Assembly: GCA_036796755.1 (NCBI GenBank)
Contig: DAIRCJ010000002.1
Coordinates: forward strand, 1 to 54,801
Direction of reading: 5' to 3'
DNA from: Candidatus Geothermocultoraceae bacterium
GTDB lineage: Bacteria; Actinomycetota; Aquicultoria; SKW223; CALKMS01
Length of the DNA stretch: 54,801 bases
The notes beneath the pieces were generated by a model. That model worked only from the letters and a program-made list of their open reading frames with translations. It did no database searches and was not told where the DNA came from. The position numbers were made by a program, and so were the translations under genes. The number at the start of each line of letters is the position of its first letter. Positions within the stretch are counted from its first letter, which is position 1. This document shows, in pieces, positions 4,225 through 42,401 of this stretch.

Positions 4225-5247
4225 TTAAAAGTTGAAGACTTTCTGGATTTCATTTAAAACTTCTTCTAGGGGTGGAGCCTCAAACCATTTTCTTTCGGTA
4301 AGCTCGTTACAGAAAGACTGATAAAGCTGGGAAATCAAAAGGCTTAGCTGGGGAGGCAAAGGTGGTGGAGAAGAAACCAGACTTTTCCAGTTGAGACGCT
4401 CTTTTCTTTTGGCTTCTTCTACCTCTTTATACCAGAGAGTTTGACGGTAAAAAATTCGAGCTAGTTCCTTGCTGACTGGCATTCCTTGATAGCTAAAGCG
4501 GCACTCATCAGGAGTTCCCAGAACATCGACGACCATCAGGTTGCGTTTTTCATCCAGAGCCATTTCCACTTTGCCATCTTCGTTAACCATTCCCAGGCGG
4601 TTGACTTCGGTAGTTATTAGCTTTTCAATTATAGAAACTAAGCGGCGAAGTTCTTTTATTTCTTCAAGCTTTAAACCAGCAATTTTTTGGGCTTCTTCCC
4701 AGCTCAGATAGCGGTCGGTAATCTCCAGTTTGGTGGAAAGGTCAAGAAAAGGCGGGTCAATTTTTTGCCCGGGCCGAGGTTCTTCTTTTAAGCCAAGGTC
4801 TTTAGTTTTTAAGCTGCCTTCTTTTAATCTTTTAAAAACACTTGAGCCCTCGGGTAAAGTATTGCGATAGATTATTTCCAGGGGCAAGAGGAAGTTTCCC
4901 GACTGGCTTTTATAATCAGAGTAGTCATATTTTCCCTCTTTTATTTGCGGTTCAAGAACCCGAACCAGTTTTACTTCCATAGTTTCAACTGGACTTTCAA
5001 GCTCTGAAATTTTCTTCAGCTTTTGATTTTCTACCAGCCCGAGATAGTGGGTTTTGACTCCCATTGACTCAAGTTTTTCAAAAAAGTAAGCCCCGATTAG
5101 ACAGAGAGATTTTCCTTTGTTCCTCAGGTGATCAGGCATTTCTCCCCAGTCAAAAACTGAGTAGCGGTCGGAAAAAACAAATCTTCCCCGTCCCAACCTC
5201 TCTTCAGTTGGGCTTTCCAGCACTATAAGATCTTTTACACTTCCCAA
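4225..5247 (-). CDS. purC: Phosphoribosylaminoimidazole-succinocarboxamide (SAICAR) synthase, long form
   Basis: The N-terminal 'GRGRFVFSDRYSVFDWGEMPD...KG..LC' and overall layout match the SAICAR synthetase family. Confidence 0.8.
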   Translation of the reverse strand: MGSVKDLIVLESPTEERLGRGRFVFSDRYSVFDWGEMPDHLRNKGKSLCLIGAYFFEKLESMGVKTHYLGLVENQKLKKISELESPVETMEVKLVRVLEPQIKEGKYDYSDYKSQSGNFLLPLEIIYRNTLPEGSSVFKRLKEGSLKTKDLGLKEEPRPGQKIDPPFLDLSTKLEITDRYLSWEEAQKIAGLKLEEIKELRRLVSIIEKLITTEVNRLGMVNEDGKVEMALDEKRNLMVVDVLGTPDECRFSYQGMPVSKELARIFYRQTLWYKEVEEAKRKERLNWKSLVSSPPPLPPQLSLLISQLYQSFCNELTERKWFEAPPLEEVLNEIQKVFNF

Positions 5248-7587: not shown

Positions 7588-10500
7588 TCAGGGTTGACTC
7601 TGGAGAGGGAAGCCCAGCGGTGTTTGCTTTTCTTGAGGAGAGATGATGAGGTGAGGGGCGGTATGTCCCCGATGACAAGCAGCGCAAAGGTCGCTATCGG
7701 CTTCAGCTCCACCAGGGGGAAGTTTAAACTCGGGAGATATACTTAAGTATCCGTCGGTACTGGTTGACTTAACTCGGTAATAATAAATGGTGTTGGTTGC
7801 CAGATTAGTCAGAGTTACCAGATGATTGGTAGTGTAGGTGTAATTGACTGCAGACTGATAAGCATAAGGAGCAGTGGGGCTGGGATGGGTGGTAGTGTCG
7901 TAAACGACCTGAGAAGTACCAGAAATGTCGGTTGTCCAGGTAATGGTAGTGTAAGTATAGGGAGGAGCAGTAGCTTCTCGGTCAAAATAGATGTGTTTAG
8001 CCCAGATGTTGGAGATAACCGGCCCTCCAGCTGTGGTGGTGTTAGGAGAAAACTCAGAAGTTGAAGGGTCAGGGTCAATGGTTAGAGCAGTCAAAATGGT
8101 TTCGTGAGTTACTCCCTTATTTTGAACATTCAGGACGAAAGAGAAAGAGTTGGTAGAAGTGGTTTCTCCCGAACCAAGATAAAAACTTCCTTCGCCATAG
8201 CCTGCCAAGTCTCCGCCGGACTTATAAACTTCCACCGTACAGCCGGCAAAATTTTTGCCTGCCGGGTCTGTTCCAATGTAACCTTCCAGATAAAGATTCC
8301 AGCCGCGAGCGTCAAGCTCGGCCCGGGTAATTATCGGATAGTCAGTTTCTTTGTTAGGGAAAGAAGGGTCTGTCGTGCCATTATTAGAGGTGACGGTGGA
8401 GTCATCAGATAAGTCTATTGGAAGAACTGAGCTGTTGGAGAAAGTGTTCTGAGTAATTTTTATGCCATTGCCAGAAGAAACGGATACCCCTTTGTTGTTT
8501 TGCTCAAGCCGATTTTTTTCAAGGGTTACCCGGGAGTCAGCAGCTTCCTCGTTCTTTAAACTTAATTTTGGTTCCGGGTAAGCAAGCTGTCGGTTTTGAA
8601 GAAGCCCGCAAGTCTGCTCTTCATCATTTAAAGAAGCATCTTCAAAGTAAGCATAGACTGGTTTTGATGCGTGAATTAAGCTTCCCGCGGGAATGTAAAC
8701 TCCTGAGGCGGTAGAACCGAAGAAGAACTTGCCGGGGTAATCTCCTGAAGCTTGAACCGAAACCACAGGTGCTTGAGTTGTTCCATCTGGCTCTTCAATC
8801 CAGATGCTGGTATCGGGGTAGGGAGCTGAAATAGCTACATACTGAGCATCAACCGGGATGCCCAGACAAATATTCAAGTTTGTTCTCTCAAAGAAGGTGG
8901 TTGATTCTAGCCCATCTCCGTCCGCTTGCTGGATGACGCCGATGGGGTTGCTGGCAATTAAATGAATTGAGGGTCCTGAACCCTGAGCTCCAAAAGGGTA
9001 TGGAGCCAGAGTTGCCAGGTTAACGCTCTGCCCCCGATTAAGAGTGAAGTTGACAGCAGTTTGAGTTCCGCTTTCATAAGCGAGGTAAGCCGTGACTGAA
9101 GTATTGTTAGCCAGAGCCGCTACATAAGCGTTTTGCGAACCAACCCCGAAAAGTTCAGTTGAGGCCGGATGCATTACAAAACTATCAGAGGGGGAAGCGT
9201 CGTAGGTTGCCAGAACCGGAGCTTCACTTTCAATTATCACTACTCGGGGGGAAGCTCCAATGGTGTAGTGAAGAGATTCTCCTCTGGCTACCTGAGTGGT
9301 AACCGAGCTGCTGAGAGTTCCGGTGGTGAGGTAGACACTGATGGTTAAACTGGTGTCAGTGAAAGGAGAAAGGATGTCAATTTGGGGGGTGTTTCTTTGA
9401 GCAGGGTAAACAAAGCGGGTGGAAGCAAAGGAGAGAGGAACCAGGGTTTCGGAGACATCAGTGATAAAAGCGGAACAAAGGGGTTTGTTGGAGCTAAAAG
9501 AAGTGGTGGGAGAGAGAGTGTTGCTGAGAAAGGTATGAGTTTCGCCCGGGTTCAGAGCTACAGTTTCTCCGCTGGCATCATTTCTAATGATAGTAGCGGG
9601 CAGTCCAGCCATTACTTGGAGATTGGAAGTTGCGCTTCTCTGGCTCACTACATACTTGTTGGTTTTAATCTCTGAATAAGAGAAGAGATCATAAGGAAGT
9701 TCCAGAGAAGGAGCCCGGGGGTTTCCGTAAAGGAGAGTGATGGTGGTTACCGAAGAAGGAGGAATGGTGGGAACTTTTACCCAGATGCGCGAGGTTCCAC
9801 TGGTGTCCCAGTTGTGAATCCAGTAATCAAGAGGTTCTCCTTGGCTGGAAAGGAAGCGAATATCACTTCCATCAGGTTGAGCTCGAGAATAATCAAAGTT
9901 TGAAGGGGTAATGGTTACCAGAACCTGATACTCGGTAAGGGTGGTGGTGCCTGAGTAGTCAATGGTTATTGGCTTCTGATAGTGCCAACCCCAGACATTA
10001 ACCCCCCGATTAAATTTCCTTAAGTTGAGATTTTTAAGGCTGGTGTTCAGTCCTTTGACCGTTAAGCCGTCGGCTGAAGAAATCAGGGAGCCGTCCAGAA
10101 CGATCTTTCCCTGGTTGTACTCGGTTTGAGTGCTTCCGTCAATCACTGTTGAACTGTCGGTTAAGTGAGGAAGTTCGCTGGAGAGAGTGATGACAAACTC
10201 CCTGTTCGTGGACTGGTAGTTGGGGTCGGTCTGGGGAATCTTGAAGTTTATGCTCTGTCCCTTTTTAATGGCGGAGGCGTTTAAAAGAGCCTGACGCAGA
10301 GAGCCCTGAATAGTGCGAGCTGAAGAAGGGTCGTCATCGCCGTCACGAGTGTTGACTATTACTTCAAAACTAAAACCAAAATCAATTTCTTCCAGATTTT
10401 CCCCTTCAAGGTCAATCCGGGCAATATGTTCGTAGTTGTTGTCGCTTACCACCGTTGAAGTGGTGAAATTATCTGAGAGGAGAGGGTTCTTTCCGCCCAG

Positions 10501-29710: not shown

Positions 29711-30739
29711 ATGGTAAAGCTAACCCATCTGGTTAAAAAGAGTGGCTGAGCTTCCAAGATAGGTCCGGCGGACCTTTCTAAGGTTCTGGATAGTTTTGAT
29801 TTTGGCCAGTCAAAAGAGGTGCTGGTTGGTCTGGACACCCCTGATGACGCGGCTGTTTACCAACTGGATTCAGGCAAATTGCTGGTGCAAACCGTGGATT
29901 TTTTCACCCCTATTGTTAACGACCCCTATCTCTTTGGCCAGATTGCCGCGGCCAACGCCCTTTCCGATATCTACGCTATGGGAGGAAAGCCGTTAGTGGC
30001 TTTAAACATCGTTGCTTTCCCCTGCAAGCTGGATTTTTCTTTGCTTTCCGAAATTCTAAGAGGGGGAAAAGAAAAGGTAGAAGAAGCCGGGGCTTTTATT
30101 ATTGGTGGGCATTCAGTTGACGATGATGAACCCAAGTACGGGCTGGCGGTAACGGGAGAGGTGGAAAGAGAAAGACTAACCACAATTGATCAGGCGCAAC
30201 CGGGAGATTTTCTGGTTTTAACCAAACCGCTGGGTTTGGGAATTTTGGCGACGGCTTTAAAAGCTGATTTTTTGACCGAAAAGGACATTGAGGAGCCGAT
30301 AAGCAAGGCTACTTATTTAAATAAAGGGGCGGCGGAGGCAGCTGCTCAAGTGGGGGCTAAAGCGGTAACCGATATTACCGGTTTTGGACTTCTGGGTCAT
30401 CTTTACGAAATGCTTAAAGCCAGTGGTGCGGGAGCTGAGATTAACTTGAAAGAAGTGCCCTATTATCAAAAGGCTATTGAGTTTATTGAATCAGGAATAA
30501 TTCCAGCCGGCCTTTATGATAATCGTCGCTTTTTAGAAGGCAAAGTTGAGATAGCTTCAGATTTGAGTGAAGCCCTGGTAGACCTTCTTTTTGACCCTCA
30601 AACTTCGGGCGGTCTTTTAATCTGCATTTCAGAAAGCAAATTGGATGATCTCCTCAAACTTTTAAAAGACAGAGCTCCAGTGGCTTCGGTTGTTGGAAGA
30701 GTGGTTGAGGGAGAGGTAAAAATAAGAGTTAAAGCTTGA
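29711..30739 (+). CDS. selD: Selenide, water dikinase (selenophosphate synthetase), selenocysteine-containing, with in-frame UGA at 29747-29749
   Basis: ATG at 29711 follows AAGGAAGGAG. Translation gives 'MVKLTHLVKKSG-U-ASKIGPADLSKVL', in frame with the ORF-track fragment 29819-30739. The UGA aligns with the catalytic Cys, and the Lys three residues later with the catalytic Lys, of the SelD N-terminal G(C/U)xxK loop. The remainder is an AIR-synthase-like fold. Confidence 0.85.
29753..29784 (+). promoter_or_regulatory. Candidate bacterial SECIS stem-loop for selD
   Basis: The hairpin GGTCC-GGC-GGACC (29762-29774) starts 12 nt after the UGA and can be extended by A61-T75, A59-T77, G58-C78, A57-T79 and CC/GG pairs. 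The apical loop begins with GG. Confidence 0.5.
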
Positions 30740-30806: not shown

Positions 30807-30835
30807 TTGAAAAATAAAAATTTCTTTGCTACCAT
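30807..30835 (+). promoter_or_regulatory. Candidate promoter TTGAAA-N17-TACCAT upstream of the dehydratase-like gene
   Basis: -35 at 30807-30812 and -10 at 30830-30835. The AAAGGAG ribosome-binding site at 30852 and the ATG at 30867 follow. Confidence 0.3.
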
Positions 30836-30866
30836 TGTTTCAATCTTTTTAAAAGGAGTGGTGAAG

Positions 30867-32141
30867 ATGGCTGACTGGTGTAAAATGTGGGAGGCAATGG
30901 GATTAAACCTTGAAGCTCACGATGAGCTTTTAAATGCTCTCCCCCCAATTTATCAGGAAATCTACCTCAATCAGGAAAATCGCCCGAAAAAAATGGAGTA
31001 CTTTGATCTGGTGGTAGCGGAAATTCACGGTTTGCGGATTAAGGAGCTTCAAGACATTAGAACCAATGGTGGCAAAGTGGTGGGAACTTTCTGCGTTTAT
31101 GTACCCGAAGAGATAGTTTTAGCCGCCGGTGGAACCTGCATTGGTCTTTGTGGAGGAGTTGATGTAGGAGCTGACGAAGCCGAAAAAGTTCTTCCCCGCA
31201 ATATTTGCCCTTTAATTAAGTCCTTTATGGGTTTTAAACTGAGCAAAATTTGCCCTTACTTTGAGTCTTGCGATGTAGTGGTAGGAGAAACAACCTGTGA
31301 CGGGAAAAAGAAAGCTTTTGAGGTCCTCTCTGATTTTACCCAGGTTTATGTGATGGAGACTCCTCAAAGAAAAGAAGAGGTGGATAAGGAACTCTGGTTT
31401 TCTGAAGTAAGAAGGTTTAGGGAAATGATGGAAGAACTTACCGGAAAAAAGATAACTGAAGAGTCTTTAAAAGAAGCCATTAAAAAAGTCAACGGGAAAA
31501 GGAGAGCTTTACAAAGGCTCTCGGAGTTGCGGAAAGCTGACCCTCCACCTATCAGCGGAAAAGACGCTCTTTTAATTGAGCAGATTGCTTTCTATGACGA
31601 TGTAGAAAGATTTACCCAGAAAGTCAATGAGCTTTGCGACGAACTTGAGGAAAGGGTAAAGAAAGGGGAAGGAGTGGTTCTTTCGGGAACTCCTCGAATT
31701 ATTGTTTCGGGAACGCCTATGGCTATTCCTAATTGGAAAGTTCCCCACATTATTGAAACCAGCGGGGCAGTAATCGTGGCTGAAGAGCTTTGTACTGGGA
31801 TGCGCTATTTCCAGGATTTAACTTTAGAAACTGATGGTTCAGTTGAGACCATGCTTAAAAACATTGCCGAAAGGCATATTGGAATTGACTGCGCTGTTTT
31901 TACTCCCAATGGAGAGAGAGCAGAAAAGGTAGCCCGCCTCTTTAAAGATTACCGGGCTAACGGCGTTGTCCACTATGTTCTTTCTTTCTGTGACCCTTAT
32001 TCGGTGGAGGCTTATCAGATTGAAAAAATGGCTAAGAGGGAAAACATCCCCTTGCTCAAAATAGAAACCGATTACAGCCAGGAAGATGTAGGTCAGTTAA
32101 AGACCAGAGTTGAAGCTTTTCTGGAGATGATAAAGGCTTGA
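30867..32141 (+). CDS. 2-hydroxyacyl-CoA dehydratase / BcrC-BadD-HgdB family Fe-S protein (double-cubane-cluster-protein-like)
   Basis: I prefer the ATG at 30867 with its ribosome-binding site over the TTG at 30807. Cys-rich blocks 'GTFCVYVPEEIVLAAGGTCIGLCGG', 'RNICPLIKS', 'CPYFESCDVVVGETTCDGKKK', 'EELCTGMRY' and 'VLSFCDPY' are typical of the HGD-D family. Confidence 0.75.
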   Translation: MADWCKMWEAMGLNLEAHDELLNALPPIYQEIYLNQENRPKKMEYFDLVVAEIHGLRIKELQDIRTNGGKVVGTFCVYVPEEIVLAAGGTCIGLCGGVDVGADEAEKVLPRNICPLIKSFMGFKLSKICPYFESCDVVVGETTCDGKKKAFEVLSDFTQVYVMETPQRKEEVDKELWFSEVRRFREMMEELTGKKITEESLKEAIKKVNGKRRALQRLSELRKADPPPISGKDALLIEQIAFYDDVERFTQKVNELCDELEERVKKGEGVVLSGTPRIIVSGTPMAIPNWKVPHIIETSGAVIVAEELCTGMRYFQDLTLETDGSVETMLKNIAERHIGIDCAVFTPNGERAEKVARLFKDYRANGVVHYVLSFCDPYSVEAYQIEKMAKRENIPLLKIETDYSQEDVGQLKTRVEAFLEMIKA

Positions 32142-32926
32142 AAAGAAGTCTTAATAATCCAGAAGAGAAGACTAGATTTGGTGGGCTGGACATAGGCTCA
32201 AGGACGGTGGCTTTAGTAGAGCTTAAGAATGGCTCTTATGACTACTGGATTGAGGAGACTTCTCATTCTCCTTTAAAAGTTGCGGAAAGGCTGGTTAAAG
32301 GAAAATCATTTGCCTATCTAGTAGCTACCGGCTATGGTCGTCATTTAGTTCGGGCTCGCTTTGCTCAAGAAGTAATTACTGAGATTAAGGCCTATGCTAT
32401 AGGAGCGTGCCATCTTTATCCCGAGGTAAGAACAATCCTGGATATTGGAGGGCAGGACACCAAGGTAATTGTTCTTAATGAGGGGGGGAAGGTTGCTGAT
32501 TTTCAAATGAATGAGAAGTGCTCAGCTGGCACCGGGAAGTTTCTTGAAGTAATGGCCAAAGCCCTTGGCTATTCTCTAGAAGAATTTGGAAAAGAGGCTT
32601 TGAAAGCCAAAAAGAAGGTCAAGGTTTCCTCAATGTGCACGGTTTTTGCTGAGTCAGAGGTGGTTTCCCTCCTTCATGAAGGCGAGGAGAGAGAAAGCAT
32701 TGCTTATGCGGTTCACGCCTCCATTGCTGAAAGAGCAGTCGGGATGCTCAAAAGAGTGGGAGTGGTGGAACCCTTGCTTTTTGCCGGCGGGGTGGCTAAA
32801 AACCCCTGTCTGGTAAAGATTCTTCAAGAAAAACTGAAGAAGGAGGTGATAGTGCCAGAAGAACCGCAAATAGTTGGCGCCTTAGGCGCCGCTATTTATT
32901 CTTTTCGTTCAGGCAAGAAATCTTAA
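32138..32926 (+). CDS. BcrAD/BadFG/HgdC-type ATPase (CoA-substrate-specific enzyme activase, [4Fe-4S]-bridged)
   Basis: ASKHA-fold motifs 'GLDIGSRTVALV', 'ATGYGR' and 'LDIGGQDTKVI'; cluster ligands 'NEKCSAGTGKFLE' and 'SMCTVFAESEV'; C-terminal 'GGVAKNPCLV' and 'PQIVGALGAA'. Its start overlaps the upstream stop. Confidence 0.8.
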   Translation: MKRSLNNPEEKTRFGGLDIGSRTVALVELKNGSYDYWIEETSHSPLKVAERLVKGKSFAYLVATGYGRHLVRARFAQEVITEIKAYAIGACHLYPEVRTILDIGGQDTKVIVLNEGGKVADFQMNEKCSAGTGKFLEVMAKALGYSLEEFGKEALKAKKKVKVSSMCTVFAESEVVSLLHEGEERESIAYAVHASIAERAVGMLKRVGVVEPLLFAGGVAKNPCLVKILQEKLKKEVIVPEEPQIVGALGAAIYSFRSGKKS

Positions 32927-39228: not shown

Positions 39229-39258
39229 AACTGCTAATCGGCGAATTAGAAGTTTGGT

Positions 39259-39708
39259 TTAAGGGATAGGAAGGTAGCAAAGAAAAACAGGCTCGTAAAC
39301 ATTACCTTCTCTTATTATTCCCAACAAATCTTTTTTTTCTCAACAATGGTAACTCACCTTCTTCTAATAATTATTAAGGAACCATTTTTTAAAGTTGATT
39401 ATCAGGTGGGACGGTAGTTGGAGAGGTACTCATTACCTCCTTTACTTTTATATTGTTTACCTCTCAAAAGCTTTCCTACATTTTTTAAAGTCTATTACTG
39501 GAGTTGGATTTTGAAAAAATTGTGCATAGTCTGATACATAGCTTTTGAAATATCTTTTTCCGAGATAACACTGACTACTTTATTCTGGTCGTCTACTACC
39601 GGTAGGTCGGCGATGTTGTGAAGAAAGATAAGATAAACTGCTTTGCTCCACTTTATCTTCAGGTTTTACCTTATGGACATAGTTTTTCATTACTTCTTCC
39701 GCTTTCAT
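39259..39708 (-). pseudogene. Decayed CBS-pair domain gene (multiple frameshifts/stops)
   Basis: On the minus strand, an ATG at 39708 follows AGGTAGGAG. 'MKAEEVMKNYVHKVKPEDKVEQ' breaks frame and continues as 'VYLILFLHNIADLPVVDDQNKVVSVISEKDISKAM'. A second CBS fragment, 'VKEVMSTSPTTVPPDNQL' ... 'LLGIIREGNVYE', lies in other frames. Confidence 0.55.
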
Positions 39709-39829
39709 CAGCTTAAACTCCTACCTTTGTTTAAATTGTTACAATTAAATTATAGCAAATTTTTGAAAAGGGAAAAAGAAACTTCAAAATTTTGAGATAA
39801 ACTTGGAATAAAAAGCTAAAAAGGTTTAA

Positions 39830-40332
39830 ATGGTATAACAAAAAATAAGGGGAGTTTATCAGGAGCTTTTAAGTAGAGCTTTAAAAAAACTAAAGGCTTT
39901 TTACCAAGAAAATCTGGTTTCAGTAGTAGTTTTTAGATCTGTAGCCAGAGAAACGCCGAGTCCTGAATCCGACCTTGGTGTTTTAATAGTTTGCGAAGAG
40001 CTTCCCCGGGGGTGAGAAAAAGGTTGGAAGAGTGTATGAAAATAGAAGAGGATTTGAGTGAATCAATTCGCGAAGCGGAAAGAAAAGGGGTAAGAACGGA
40101 GATTTCACCAGTTCTAAAAACCCGGGAAGAGGTAAAAAAAAGTTAGCCTCCTTTTTCCTGATTTTGTAGAAGAGGCAAAAATTCTCTATAATGGGGATTT
40201 ATTTTTTTCTTCTTTTCTGGAGGAGTTCAAAAAAAGCTGGAAGAATTAGAAGCGAAAAGGATAAAGCAGGGCGACCGCTGGTATTGGGTTCTCAAGCCAA
40301 ATTTCAAACCGGGCGAGGTGTTTGAGATTTGA
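39830..40332 (+). pseudogene. Decayed nucleotidyltransferase (MNT-type antitoxin) gene
   Basis: It starts ATG GTA TAA, so codon 3 is a nonsense codon. It then reads 'YQELLSRALKKLKAFYQENLVSVVVFRSVARETPSPESDLGVLIVCEELPRG', followed by frameshifts at G/A/T homopolymers: 'RKRLEECMKIEEDL...PVLKTREEVKK', 'FLDFVEEAKILYNGDLFF', 'LEELEAKRIKQGDRWYWVLKPNFKPGEVFEI*'. Confidence 0.65.
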
Positions 40333-40756
40333 CCAACCTTATGCTGGCTCAGAGTTATTTAATAAAAATAAAAGCTAAAAAACGCTTGCGGGCATTGGAA
40401 GTTTTACTGGAAGAGGAAGCTTATTCAGATGTAGTTCGGGAAGCTCAAGAAATAGTTGAACTTTCACTTAAGGGAATTTTAAGAGCAATTGGGGTTGAAC
40501 CTCCAAAGTGGCATGATGTTGGAAGTTTAGTTTTGGAGGATCGCGAGAAGTCGGGGAAGAAATAGCCAGTCAGGCAAAGAGAATAGCTCAGATTTCTAAA
40601 AGTTTGAGGCAAGAAAGAGAGCTTTCTTTTTATGGTGAAGTGGATTTCATTCTGACTGAGTCTTACAATAAGGAAGACGCTCATTTGGCTTACCGGGAAG
40701 CTCAGGAAATAGTTTTTCTAGCTGGGAAAGTAATTCCCCTTAACAAAAAACCTTAA
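40329..40756 (+). pseudogene. Frameshifted HEPN-domain (toxin-type) gene, 4-nt overlap with the MNT remnant
   Basis: 'MLAQSYLIKIKAKKRLRALEVLLEEEAYSDVVREAQEIVELSLKGILRAIGVEPPKWHDVGSL' stops at 40565. The family-typical C-terminus 'EEIASQAKRIAQISKSLRQERELSFYGE...YNKEDAHLAYREAQEIV' continues in the +1 frame to 40756. Confidence 0.65.
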
Positions 40757-40820
40757 AAAAGAAAAGCTGGGAGTTTTGGATACTAGTCTTTTGATTGCCC
40801 TTTTTGAGCTGAGAGCTTTC

Positions 40821-40840
40821 TGAGGGAAAATTTTGAAATG
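40821..40840 (+). repeat. Partial copy F of the dispersed repeat tail ('tgagggaaaattttgaaatg')
   Basis: Near-identical to 'tgagggaaaatttgaaag' in copy B (7488-7505). It lies between convergent gene ends. Confidence 0.35.
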
Positions 40841-40882
40841 TTCCTTCGTATTTGTAAGTATAGTATAAATTGGAGTTTTCTT

Positions 40883-42256
40883 TTAAATGAGTTTTTTAAT
40901 TTTCTGTTGGGCGTCCAGAGCCGCGTCTCCGATAACTTCTGCTATTGTCGGATGAGTGTAAATATGAGAGGCAAGCTCTTTTAAATTGGCTCCGCTTCTC
41001 ATTGCCACTGAGATTATCTGAACAAGCTCGGAAGCACTTTCTCCAAAAATATGGGCTCCGAGAATTCTTCCGCCTGGACTTTCGGCGATTATTTTTACTA
41101 TCCCCTCTTCTAATGACTCAGCCCAGTAAACTCCTTCTTCTCTGAGCTTAGCTTTTCCTACCACGTAAGCGAGACCAGTTTTTTTAACTTCTTCTTCAGT
41201 CAATCCGACACTTCCGATTTCCGGTTGAAAGTAAATGGCTCGGGGAACTATTGAGTAATCAACAGTTTCAACATTGCTTTCAATTGCGTTTTTAGCGGCC
41301 AGATTTCCTTCATAATAGGCTACTGAGGTAAGCATAAAACCGCCAATACAGTCGCCTGCGGCATAGATATGGGGCTGGCTGGTCTGGAGAAACTCATTGA
41401 CTTTTATTCCTTTCCTGTCTGCTTCCAAACCGGCTTTGTCAAGTTCAAGGTGTTCAAGATTGGGAATTCTTCCTAGAGCGTTCATAACCAAAGGAAAGAT
41501 AGAAGTTCTTTCCTTGCCCGATTGCTCGTAGGTAAGCTCAAAACCCTTCTTGGTCTGGTTTATTTTTTTAACCATAGATGAGCTAAAGATAGTTATACCT
41601 TTTTTTCTCATTGAGCTTTCCAGAGCTCTTGATATTTCTTCGTCTTCACTGCTGGCTAATCTTTCTCTCATTTCAATCAGGGTTACCTTAACTCCGGCCT
41701 GAGAAAAAATATAGGCAAACTCTAAAGCCACCGCTCCCCCGCCCAGAATAGCTATTTCCTCAGGCAAAGAGGGCAGGTTAAAGGCTTCGTCGCTGGTCAG
41801 GCAGTTTTGAATTCCTTCCACCGGTGGCAGTGCGACTCGGGAACCGCAAGCAACTATTATTTTTTTCGCTTTCACTCTTTCCTTTCCAGCTTTTAATTCA
41901 TTGGGGCTCAAAAAAGTGGCTTTTTCGGGGATTAAATCTACCTTCCAGCGTTTGATGGCTTCATTTCTCTTTTCTCTGAGGAAGTTTACTATATCATCTT
42001 TTCTTTTCCGGGCTTTTTCCCAGTTGAACCTAGCTGAACTTATTTCTATTCCAAATTCATGAGCTTTCTTAACTGTTTCAGCTACCTTTCCCGACCTTAC
42101 CAAGGCCTTTTTGGGGATACACCCCCTGTTAAGTCAGGTGCCGCCTAAATTACCGTAGTCAGCGAGTCCAACTTTTAAATTTGCTTTAGCGGCACGGGCA
42201 GCAGCTGCCATTCCAGCCGTTCCGCCTCCGATGACAAAAAAGTCGTATTCTTTCAT
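40883..42256 (-). CDS. Class-I pyridine nucleotide-disulfide oxidoreductase (Lpd/MerA/GR family) with in-frame UGA (42134-42136) at the first redox-active Cys; candidate selenoprotein
   Basis: ATG at 42256 follows AAGGAG. 'MKEYDFFVIGGGTAGMAAAARAAKANLKVGLADYGNLGGT-U-LNRGCIPKKAL' is in frame (codon 41) with ORF 40883-42103. It has a second Rossmann fold 'ILGGGAVALEFA' and the C-terminal dimerisation-domain motif 'HIYTHPTIAEV'. Confidence 0.75.
42093..42126 (-). promoter_or_regulatory. Candidate SECIS hairpin(s) downstream of the oxidoreductase UGA
   Basis: The minus-strand RNA after the UGA reads CUUAACA-GGGG-GUGUAU-CCCC-AAAAA-GGCCUU-GGU-AAGGUC. It offers two stem-loops. The second (42093-42107) has six pairs including one G-U, and a GGU apical loop. 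Confidence 0.4.
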
Positions 42257-42401
42257 TTATTACTCCTTTTATTAAAATTACTCCTTTTATTAAAATCATA
42301 ACAAAGTAGTTTTTTGGGGTAAAATCTTCCGAAGAATTAGATTTTTTTGTTTTTTTGACCTTCTCAAGAGGTTGAGAGGAGAAGTTTTTTGCTTCCTTAA
42401 G

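Follow-up and report, generated by a model that had tools for sequence, protein, structure and literature searches.

A 54,801-nucleotide stretch of contig DAIRCJ010000002.1, from an assembly labelled Candidatus Geothermocultoraceae bacterium (below, the window), carries on its minus strand a gene that an open reading frame (ORF) lister reports only in two pieces. Read through the in-frame UGA that separates them, the gene probably encodes a genuine selenoprotein (we put the probability at roughly 0.87): a homodimeric group-1 flavoprotein disulfide reductase (FDR) of the dihydrolipoyl dehydrogenase (Lpd)/glutathione reductase (GR) type, with selenocysteine (Sec) at the position of the interchange cysteine.

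A single in-frame UGA interrupts a complete gene

The minus-strand frame at 40883-42256 spans 458 codons including a TAA stop, and its sole break is a TGA at 42134-42136. The read-through product is 457 amino acids (aa) long and reads ...NLGGT-U-LNRGC-IPKK... across the UGA. The ORF lister reports the gene as two pieces, one of 40 aa (42134-42256) and one of 406 aa that begins at a TTG (42103), from which the same frame runs open for 51 codons upstream, to an ATG at 42256-42254. An earlier note, made from the letters of this DNA alone, had described the TTG start, the 51 further open codons, the ATG with an AAGGAG site and the TGA as the only interruption, and the sequence agrees with each of these. 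Because the Cys46 codon lies upstream of the TTG chosen by the caller, the redox center is missing from the 406-aa call, which has neither of the two redox residues and also lacks the GxGxxG motif that binds flavin adenine dinucleotide (FAD). The intact gene has the following features.

40883-42256, minus strand: complete Sec-FDR coding sequence, 457 codons plus a TAA stop (40883-40885), codon 41 being UGA (Sec)
42134-42136, minus strand: UGA codon 41, predicted to be read as Sec, standing where the CxxxxC center has its N-terminal (interchange) Cys, from conservation of the TGA in orthologs and alignment with structures
42119-42121, minus strand: codon of Cys46, the predicted flavin-proximal (charge-transfer) partner of Sec41, from alignment
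42212-42229, minus strand: FAD-binding GxGxxG motif, G10-G-G-T-A-G15 (residues 10-15)
41726-41743, minus strand: NAD(P)H-binding GxGxxA motif, residues 172-177, the second Rossmann motif
41672-41674, minus strand: Glu195, at the end of the following beta-strand, an NADH-type signature from alignment with Lpd-type Cys homologs
40937-40954, minus strand: His435-x4-Glu440 (HPTIAE), the acid-base dyad of group-1 disulfide reductases, from alignment
42263-42268, minus strand: AAGGAG ribosome-binding site in the sequence, with a 6-nucleotide (nt) spacer to the ATG at 42256

The 5' leader (42259-42296, minus strand) contains a perfect 18-nt tandem duplication (2.1 copies) in which TTTAATAAAAGGAGTAAT occurs twice; the AAGGAG site is twofold because this repeat is duplicated. 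A promoter-like TTTACC-17-TATGAT sequence with an upstream TG lies before the gene at 42323-42295. The G+C content of the window is ~42-43%.

The UGA and the codons before it are conserved

We searched 5.8 billion proteins and considered the ten best matches (100-40% identity). All ten are 395-410 aa long and cover only 86-89% of the query, and full-length homologs (~465 aa) appear only from 39% identity downward. An exhaustive HMMER search of 1.84 billion representatives of 50%-identity clusters, with the 406-aa ORF as query, gave a matching picture: the sequences of the four closest clusters (53, 40, 41 and 37% identity) all start one residue past the Sec position, and proteins with an intact N-terminus are all more distant than those four.

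The DNA of nine of the ten best matches, together with two genome matches (L009 and L010), revealed why the N-termini are missing from these calls. Every ortholog locus reads GGT-TGA-L-x-[RK]-GC-IPKK, with the N-terminus upstream of the TGA conserved, and the TGA occupies the same codon at all 10 independent ortholog loci, whose identity ranges from 74% to 38%. One of these, L009, is 71% identical and syntenic and comes from a metagenome-assembled genome (MAG) labelled 'uncultured Actinomycetota bacterium'. Among the matches listed, ~115 further metagenome contigs carry a TGA at that codon, and there too the frame is open and conserved before and after it; such recurrence goes well past what chance would give. 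For the 39 codons upstream of the TGA, the ratio of nonsynonymous to synonymous divergence (dN/dS) between close orthologs is 0.05-0.09, with dS at least 1.2 and often saturated; the 60 codons after the TGA show the same regime. Examined for a genuine stop or frameshift with decay of the upstream 40 codons, the homologs had kept both the TGA and those codons. Cysteine stands at the Sec column in more distant relatives, among them the solved structures 4dna and 8k40, the proteins P0011 and P0151, and ~25 other forms with Cys at this column (Cys forms), and every Cys form is at most 39% identical to the window protein.

Gene callers, including those behind public MAG annotations, output exactly the short product that would be expected if the TGA were a genuine stop, in a pseudogene or truncated gene that makes nothing functional or only the 406-aa protein from TTG 42103. 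Such a truncation is extremely unlikely. The 406-aa product would be without the FAD-binding motif and both redox residues, the 39 upstream codons are under strong purifying selection, the same TGA occurs in more than 100 independent contigs of several subfamilies among the matches listed, and the internal starts that callers chose vary between orthologs, giving products of 395-410 aa. A global reassignment of UGA was ruled out, as TGA terminates 20 of the 42 long ORFs in the window and is its commonest true stop codon. Since the TGA and the upstream codons are conserved, TGA is the usual stop and the 406-aa call lacks the active site, we consider that a pseudogene, a sequencing error and code reassignment are in practice excluded by the sequence evidence.

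The UGA falls on the interchange cysteine of a group-1 disulfide reductase

With Cys in place of U41, the read-through product matches Pyr_redox_2 over the whole profile (residues 4-317, E = 3.8e-65) and Pyr_redox_dim at full length (residues 337-445, E = 6.7e-31) in Pfam, as expected from the earlier proposal of an FDR of the Lpd/MerA/GR type. The structures nearest in sequence are 4dna, a probable GR (E = 2.5e-76), then the mercuric reductase GbsMerA, 8k40 (E = 1e-72), and the Lpd structures 6uzi and 1ebd. GGT-U-LNRGC-IPKK aligns onto GGTC-VIRGC-VPKK of 4dna and GGTC-ALRGC-DPKK of 8k40. In solved GR, Lpd and MerA structures, the first Cys of GGTCxxxGC is the residue aligned with U41, which therefore occupies the first position of the CxxxxC motif, the column in which the earlier note had placed it. 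In enzymes of this family, the first Cys of CxxxxC is the interchange thiol and the second is the flavin-proximal charge-transfer thiol. The redox center U41-LNRG-C46, with Sec first, and the H435-PTIA-E440 dyad are the marks of a group-1 FDR. Lpd-type Cys homologs have the same Glu as Glu195, in ...VEM/IEM..., where GR-type enzymes have Arg.

The best NCBIfam model is TIGR01350 (lipoamide dehydrogenase), whose cut-off of 408.8 bits is exceeded marginally by the product with U changed to C (415.7 bits); several unrelated Sec subfamilies, and a MerA-like one, likewise exceed it. Other assignments were tried and rejected. For MerA, the TIGR02053 score was 365.9 bits against a cut-off of 454.45, the protein ends in ...QQKIKKLI without Cys, His435 is kept and the neighboring genes are sugar-nucleotide genes. 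For GR, the scores were 361.5 against 480 (NF004776), 335.3 against 606 (TIGR01421) and 277.9 against 556 bits (TIGR01424), and Glu195 stands where GR has ...YRGKEILSR. High-Mr thioredoxin reductase (TIGR01438, 207.6 against 475.85 bits) was rejected as well, the window protein having none of its C-terminal redox tail, as was CoA-disulfide reductase/NADH oxidase (TIGR03385, 97.7 against 578.8 bits), whose motif is UGxP where the window protein has U-LNRG-C. Mtr, Sth, RclA and TGR each scored under their curated NCBIfam cut-offs.

An RNA element after the UGA is under selection

Two hairpins after the TGA, one with a GGU loop, had been noticed in the earlier note, and both were found.

42093-42107, minus strand: hairpin 2, GGCCUU-GGU-AAGGUC, candidate SECIS (selenocysteine insertion sequence) apical hairpin, with the GGU loop at 42099-42101, 32 nt after the UGA
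42113-42126, minus strand: hairpin 1, GGGG-(GUGUAU)-CCCC, over the G-C-I-P codons

By the published definition (PMC13188914), a bacterial SECIS (bSECIS) combines a stem of 4-16 base pairs (bp) with an apical loop of 3-9 nt that has a G in its first two positions and lies 16-37 nt from the UGA, and it folds with a minimum free energy of -7.5 kcal/mol or lower. Hairpin 2 has this geometry, with a 3-nt loop starting GG, a 6-bp stem and 32-nt spacing, while hairpin 1 falls short of the published spacing, at just 12 nt from the UGA.

Synonymous diversity was measured in 435 intervals across the gene, with 11 distinct sequences of the window's clade aligned by codon; the ten lowest intervals all lie at codons +4 to +13 after the UGA, with values of 0.17-0.32 versus a gene mean of 0.54, and the codons TTG-GTA-AGG are nearly invariant there. 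We also scanned offsets from -110 to +700 in 86 unique sequences with TGA at this codon (Sec forms), from all subfamilies among the matches listed. In 66% of them the +30 position is the start of a perfect 6-bp hairpin with a loop of 3 or 4 nt, against 17% for the next-best offset and a 99th percentile of 7%. The stems differ by subfamily (GGCCUU/AAGGUC, GACCCU/AGGGUC, GACCCA/UGGGUC, GGCCCU/AGGGCC and GGCUCU/AGAGCC), with loops of GGU, GUU or GGUC and compensatory pairs between subfamilies (U-A/C-G, U-A/A-U and C-G/U-A). The hairpin is missing from three Cys forms that encode the same peptides: 22 Sec-form sequences encode K-T-L-L-R-S as ACC TTG TTA AGG TCN, whereas the Cys form L143 encodes it as ACC TTA TTG CGT TCA and has no hairpin, and the Cys forms L145 and L146 encode the window's K-A-L-V-R-S in other codons, also without the hairpin. 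In hairpin 1, pair 12-24 changes from subfamily to subfamily, being G-C in 55 and C-G in 18 sequences among the matches listed, at synonymous sites.

The low synonymous variation, the uniqueness of the +30 position, the compensatory changes and the absence from matched Cys forms argue that an RNA element after the UGA is under selection, in keeping with the conserved structure that the earlier note had proposed to look for. An Rfam scan of the whole window at gathering thresholds gave no match, which we do not count against a SECIS because bacterial SECIS elements are too diverse.

The host genome carries a Sec-type selD

The window contains a second gene with an in-frame UGA.

29711-30739, plus strand: Sec-type selenophosphate synthetase selD, with UGA at 29747-29749 (KKSG-TGA-ASK)

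Its motif is the UxxK of Sec-type SelD (Table 1 of PMC13188914). Since a Sec-type SelD needs Sec machinery, its presence indicates that this organism decodes UGA as Sec, as the earlier note had argued; the distance to the FDR gene is ~12 kb, not the 10 kb given there. The same note had likened hairpin 2 to a hairpin after the selD UGA. That UGA is indeed followed by GGUCC-GGC-GGACC, but the minimum free energy fold prefers another pairing.

Around selD lie a divergent LysR regulator, YedE (Sulf_transp) and YedF (TusA). On the other side, ~4 kb beyond the FDR gene, are a class-V aminotransferase gene and then a 75-aa ORF, which occupies the place of the PF11823 Se_S_carrier (DUF3343) gene in the related loci L001, L003 and L004. 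The only tRNA found across 55 related loci scanned is a tRNA-SeC (anticodon tca) in L100, at 9431-9524 on the minus strand, ~350 nt downstream of the Sec-FDR gene of that locus (7779-9077). In the window and in L001, L003 and L004, the Sec-FDR gene is monocistronic and divergent from a sugar-nucleotide operon; in a subclade at 54% identity it stands between a GAF histidine kinase gene and genes for rubrerythrin, desulfoferrodoxin and a Fur-family protein.

Genes for an HGD-D protein (2-hydroxyacyl-CoA dehydratase D-component-like) and a BcrAD/BadFG-type activator ATPase lie between selD and YedE/YedF, at 30807-32926, and are unusual members for a selenium-utilization cluster. The 1.6 kb downstream of the FDR gene (39229-40882) are gene-poor. 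They hold an ORF with a HEPN domain (40329-40565) followed by a small ORF (40604-40756) that is maybe the downstream part of the HEPN ORF, which would suggest a decayed gene.

Decoding and catalysis

Several results weigh against a Sec-containing, stand-alone reductase. Hairpin 2 on its own is of modest stability (-5.8 kcal/mol, z = -2.7), the 64-nt stretch does not exceed its shuffles in stability (z = +0.7), and the -7.5 kcal/mol of the published description is reached only with both hairpins, in a 41-nt segment of -13.5 kcal/mol. About one third of the Sec-form sequences, mainly a sub-branch with the motif U-VNEGC and the canonical-Lpd-like L031 and L113, are without hairpin 2 and apparently have other folds or a longer stem. 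Mutual information between paired columns is not above the phylogenetic background. Neither selA nor selB was seen in the 54.8-kb window, where Pfam annotation extended to the remaining large ORFs at 28-54 kb, and ARAGORN found no tRNA in it, tRNA-Sec included. The TIGR01350 cut-off for Lpd is passed, if only just, and the Sec-FDR gene has no operon partner. As the thermodynamic stability is unremarkable, the case for a SECIS rests on comparison; as there is no operon partner, the assignment of a substrate is weak.

Some of these results would also suit a UGA41 that is not read as Sec, but as Cys, by a tRNA-Cys with a UCA anticodon or by the Sec machinery, or by near-cognate Trp/Cys suppression, yielding an ordinary enzyme. 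The genes selA, selB and selC were not seen in the window, and two eukaryote-like members of the wider family (L037 and L136, below) may reflect a code in which UGA is Cys. We nevertheless regard such decoding as very unlikely. TGA is the most common true stop in the window; a Sec-type selD and a selenium-utilization gene set are present; the UGA is followed by a position-specific structured element, as in bacterial SECIS; the selD UGA has a similar hairpin of stem and GGN triloop; and in L100 a tRNA-Sec adjoins a family member.

For the preferred reading, Sec at codon 41, we propose the following mechanism, in which the decoding step draws on the comparative evidence and the catalytic steps on established FDR chemistry, with residues placed by alignment. 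SelB carrying Sec-tRNASec would dock on GGCCUU-GGU-AAGGUC, ~30 nt past UGA41, and insert Sec, giving the 457-aa enzyme instead of a 40-aa fragment. FAD would be reduced by NADH, a preference suggested by the Glu195 signature, and the reduced flavin would pass two electrons through the flavin-proximal Cys46 to the Sec41-Cys46 selenenylsulfide. The Sec41 selenolate, in the role of the interchange thiol, would then attack the oxidized substrate, and Cys46 would resolve the mixed Se-S intermediate, with His435'-Glu440' of the partner subunit acting as the acid-base catalyst.

Candidate functions

Our best guess is that the enzyme is a putative stand-alone NADH-dependent disulfide, persulfide or selenenylsulfide reductase in redox defense. 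We favor a stand-alone reductase because MerA features, mer neighbors and a lipoate/gcv context are all absent. The rubrerythrin, desulfoferrodoxin and Fur-family neighbors of the 54%-identity subclade also speak for this function.

The enzyme could instead be a housekeeping dihydrolipoyl dehydrogenase that carries Sec and serves glycine cleavage or 2-oxoacid dehydrogenase complexes as E3 or L-protein. This would account for the TIGR01350 score, for the NADH-type Glu195 and for the His-Glu dyad, and the nearest full-length Cys homologs (P0011, P0079 and P0113) are Lpd genes in gcv/lipoate-ligase operons; the nearest Cys-form loci with this lipoate-complex context are L144, L145 and L146. However, identity to P0011, P0079 and P0113 is only 36-39%, and neither the window nor any of the more than 10 ortholog loci has lipoate, gcv or E1/E2 genes close to the Sec-FDR gene. 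The C-terminal ...AIH tail that is common to most sampled Lpd-type Cys forms is missing, and the closest sisters, L021 and L022, have a C-terminal CCG tail, with one of the two adjoining MerC. A housekeeping role is rather unlikely, and we do not think that the protein is the E3 or L-protein of a lipoate-dependent complex.

We find it somewhat harder still to credit a chalcogen or metal reductase, which would reduce selenotrisulfide, perselenide or selenite to feed SelD, or Hg(II) as short MerA enzymes do. In four syntenic genomes the gene does sit between the selD-YedE-YedF set and the class-V aminotransferase plus DUF3343/Se_S_carrier set, but it is monocistronic, and polysaccharide-synthesis genes stand between it and the selenium genes. 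By sequence, the short mercuric reductase GbsMerA (8k40) ranks second among the solved relatives, and other Sec subfamilies occur among MerB, MerR, MerE-Trx, HMA-MerA and HMA-ATPase genes, with MerC beside L022. Yet the window protein keeps His435-Glu440 where MerA enzymes have Tyr, has neither a C-terminal Cys pair nor an NmerA domain, and falls short of the MerA cut-off; moreover, the 54%-identity subclade has no selenium or mercury neighbors.

A wider class of putative Sec-containing reductases

A metagenome scan for G-G-T-TGA-x3-G-C-[ILV]-P-x-K returned at least 120 loci, and nearly all of them encode a genuine FDR N-terminus with an open frame before and after the TGA. Pooling these with the earlier ortholog loci and the window gave 79 full-length read-through proteins, which form at least 15 clusters at 55% identity. 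The motifs of the clusters include U-VNEGC, U-ITRGC, U-INVGC, U-VNRGC, U-PNYGC, U-MNTGC and U-LNVGC, besides the window's U-L.RGCIPKK. No NCBIfam selenoprotein model covers any cluster among the matches listed. The U-VNRGC member L073, which ends in ...SCC, exceeds the NCBIfam MerA cut-off.

A neighbor-joining tree, rough and with Cys forms sampled only from the window's nearest matches, joins L021 and L022 to the window's clade, in a group that stands next to the canonical Cys-Lpd clade but not within it, and places the Cys form P0151 inside a Sec clade. We do not claim monophyly of the Sec forms and draw no firm phylogenetic conclusion from so rough a tree.

Of the 120 best database clusters for the U-VNEGC family (100-62% identity), only one has the N-terminus. 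Named homologs are Chloroflexota/Anaerolineae and Marinimicrobia MAG proteins (such as KAA3644021.1 and MCH8340698.1), called 'dihydrolipoamide dehydrogenase', 'FAD-containing oxidoreductase' or 'NAD(P)/FAD-dependent oxidoreductase'. Recurrent neighbors among the matches listed are MerB, MerR, a MerE-thioredoxin fusion, zf_CopZ, a canonical HMA-MerA and an HMA P-type ATPase, at loci that include L109, L115, L142, L059 and L077; despite these mer-type neighbors, the U-VNEGC enzymes retain the His-Glu dyad. This points to a selenium-dependent enzyme in mercury/organomercury resistance loci, apparently of Chloroflexota by the named homologs. L022, a sister of the window's clade, adjoins MerC.

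A C-terminal ...CCG occurs in L021 and L022, and ...CCG or ...SCC tails occur among L073, L081 and L124; these tails resemble the redox tail of MerA or of insect thioredoxin reductase (TrxR). The locus L081 holds two different Sec-FDR genes, of the U-VNRGC and U-VNVGC types, at 4596 and 6029, ~1.4 kb apart. Two further loci, L037 and L136, are TrxR-like and eukaryotic-looking (...TW.(L/V)GGT-TGA-[LV]NVGC[IV]PKKMMH), with further in-frame stops in L037; the TGA of both may reflect a nuclear code in which UGA is Cys rather than Sec. The canonical Lpd-like GGT-TGA-LNVGCIPSK of L031 and L113 has the TGA without the +30 hairpin; these two could have switched from Cys to Sec independently, using a different SECIS, or could be errors.

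Sec-FDRs occur in MAGs labelled Chloroflexota/Anaerolineae, Marinimicrobia and Actinomycetota and on unassigned contigs. A bolder conjecture, which we offer tentatively and hold to be improbable as a whole, is that the window gene is one tip of an old, large and uncatalogued radiation of Sec-containing group-1 flavoprotein reductases with a homologous in-frame SECIS, in which Sec at the flavin-adjacent center is there for chalcogen or soft-metal chemistry and not for ordinary disulfide exchange. The U-VNEGC and CC-tailed subfamilies would then be selenium-dependent parts of mercury/organomercury detoxification, and the window enzyme would release selenide for SelD. If so, it would be a second self-referential step in selenium assimilation, beside the Sec-type SelD.

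Novelty and significance

Whether this family was already catalogued as a selenoprotein had been left undecided in the earlier note. Table 1 of a 2026 review counts 119 prokaryotic selenoprotein families or subfamilies (PMC13188914), and among these entries we found no Lpd/GR/MerA-type enzyme and no UxxxxC motif; the nearest are CoA-disulfide reductase/NADH oxidase (UGxP) and type III sulfide:quinone oxidoreductase (HxxU). Within the open literature, the class is also absent from the papers on BSepDB and deep-Sep, the Sargasso, GOS and Olavius-symbiont surveys, the 2006 and 2016 surveys and the Haft preprint. The enzyme family and the recoding mechanism are both classic; what is new, within the open literature searched, is Sec at a previously unrecorded position.

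Few redox enzymes have been studied as thoroughly as Lpd, GR and MerA, and we did not find a natural version with a flavin-adjacent selenenylsulfide described. Such an enzyme offers a natural test of the effect of Sec on nucleophilicity, leaving-group ability and redox potential at the flavin-adjacent center. In public MAGs, hundreds of these genes go under the names 'dihydrolipoamide dehydrogenase' or 'FAD oxidoreductase', as catalytically dead proteins with a truncated N-terminus. Because the genes are called truncated, metabolic reconstructions and selenoproteome counts (for example, of Chloroflexota) would be wrong for this protein. The MerB, MerR and MerA neighbors of some subfamilies, and the position of the window copy in a selenium-utilization region, suggest testable links of selenium use with the handling of mercury or selenium.

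Comparison with known systems

The closest comparison is with Lpd/E3 (TIGR01350) and GR, which have the same fold and domain order, full-length Pyr_redox_2 and Pyr_redox_dim, the same GGT-x-xxx-GC motif on the FAD domain and the same HPxxxE dyad. With Lpd, the window protein also has in common the NADH-type Glu after the second Rossmann strand. It differs in that its interchange Cys is Sec, and it is at most 39% identical to any Cys form.

MerA is a group-1 FDR with the same redox motif, and the short GbsMerA, like the window protein, is without NmerA and a C-terminal Cys pair. MerA enzymes, including GbsMerA (8k40), have Tyr at the position of the dyad His (PMC10587081), here in place of His435. 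They also use NADPH, and the window's clade has no mer neighbors. The catalogued 'putative mercuric reductase' selenoprotein (NF041115 / PRK13748, UxxU) suggests a link by name only: in the deep-Sep supplement sequences it is a ~100-aa heavy-metal-binding domain protein with no flavoenzyme part.

A Sec-containing NADH oxidase/CoA-disulfide reductase FAD-dependent oxidoreductase (TIGR03385, motif UGxP) is catalogued in Table 1 of PMC13188914. Like the window protein, this family is bacterial, belongs to the Pyr_redox_2 superfamily and has Sec for a catalytic Cys next to FAD. It differs in consisting of single-Cys (group-3) enzymes without CxxxxC, and in its motif.

Mammalian-type high-Mr thioredoxin reductase (TXNRD) is the single well-known group-1 FDR selenoprotein, and it works through a selenenylsulfide. 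The chemical logic would be the same in the window protein, with a selenolate as attacking or leaving group. In TXNRD, however, Sec lies in a mobile C-terminal GCUG tail, the flavin-adjacent CVNVGC is all-Cys and the SECIS is the eukaryotic one of the 3' untranslated region, whereas the window protein has no C-terminal redox tail, places its predicted Sec inside the flavin-adjacent center itself and carries its SECIS-like hairpin within the coding region.

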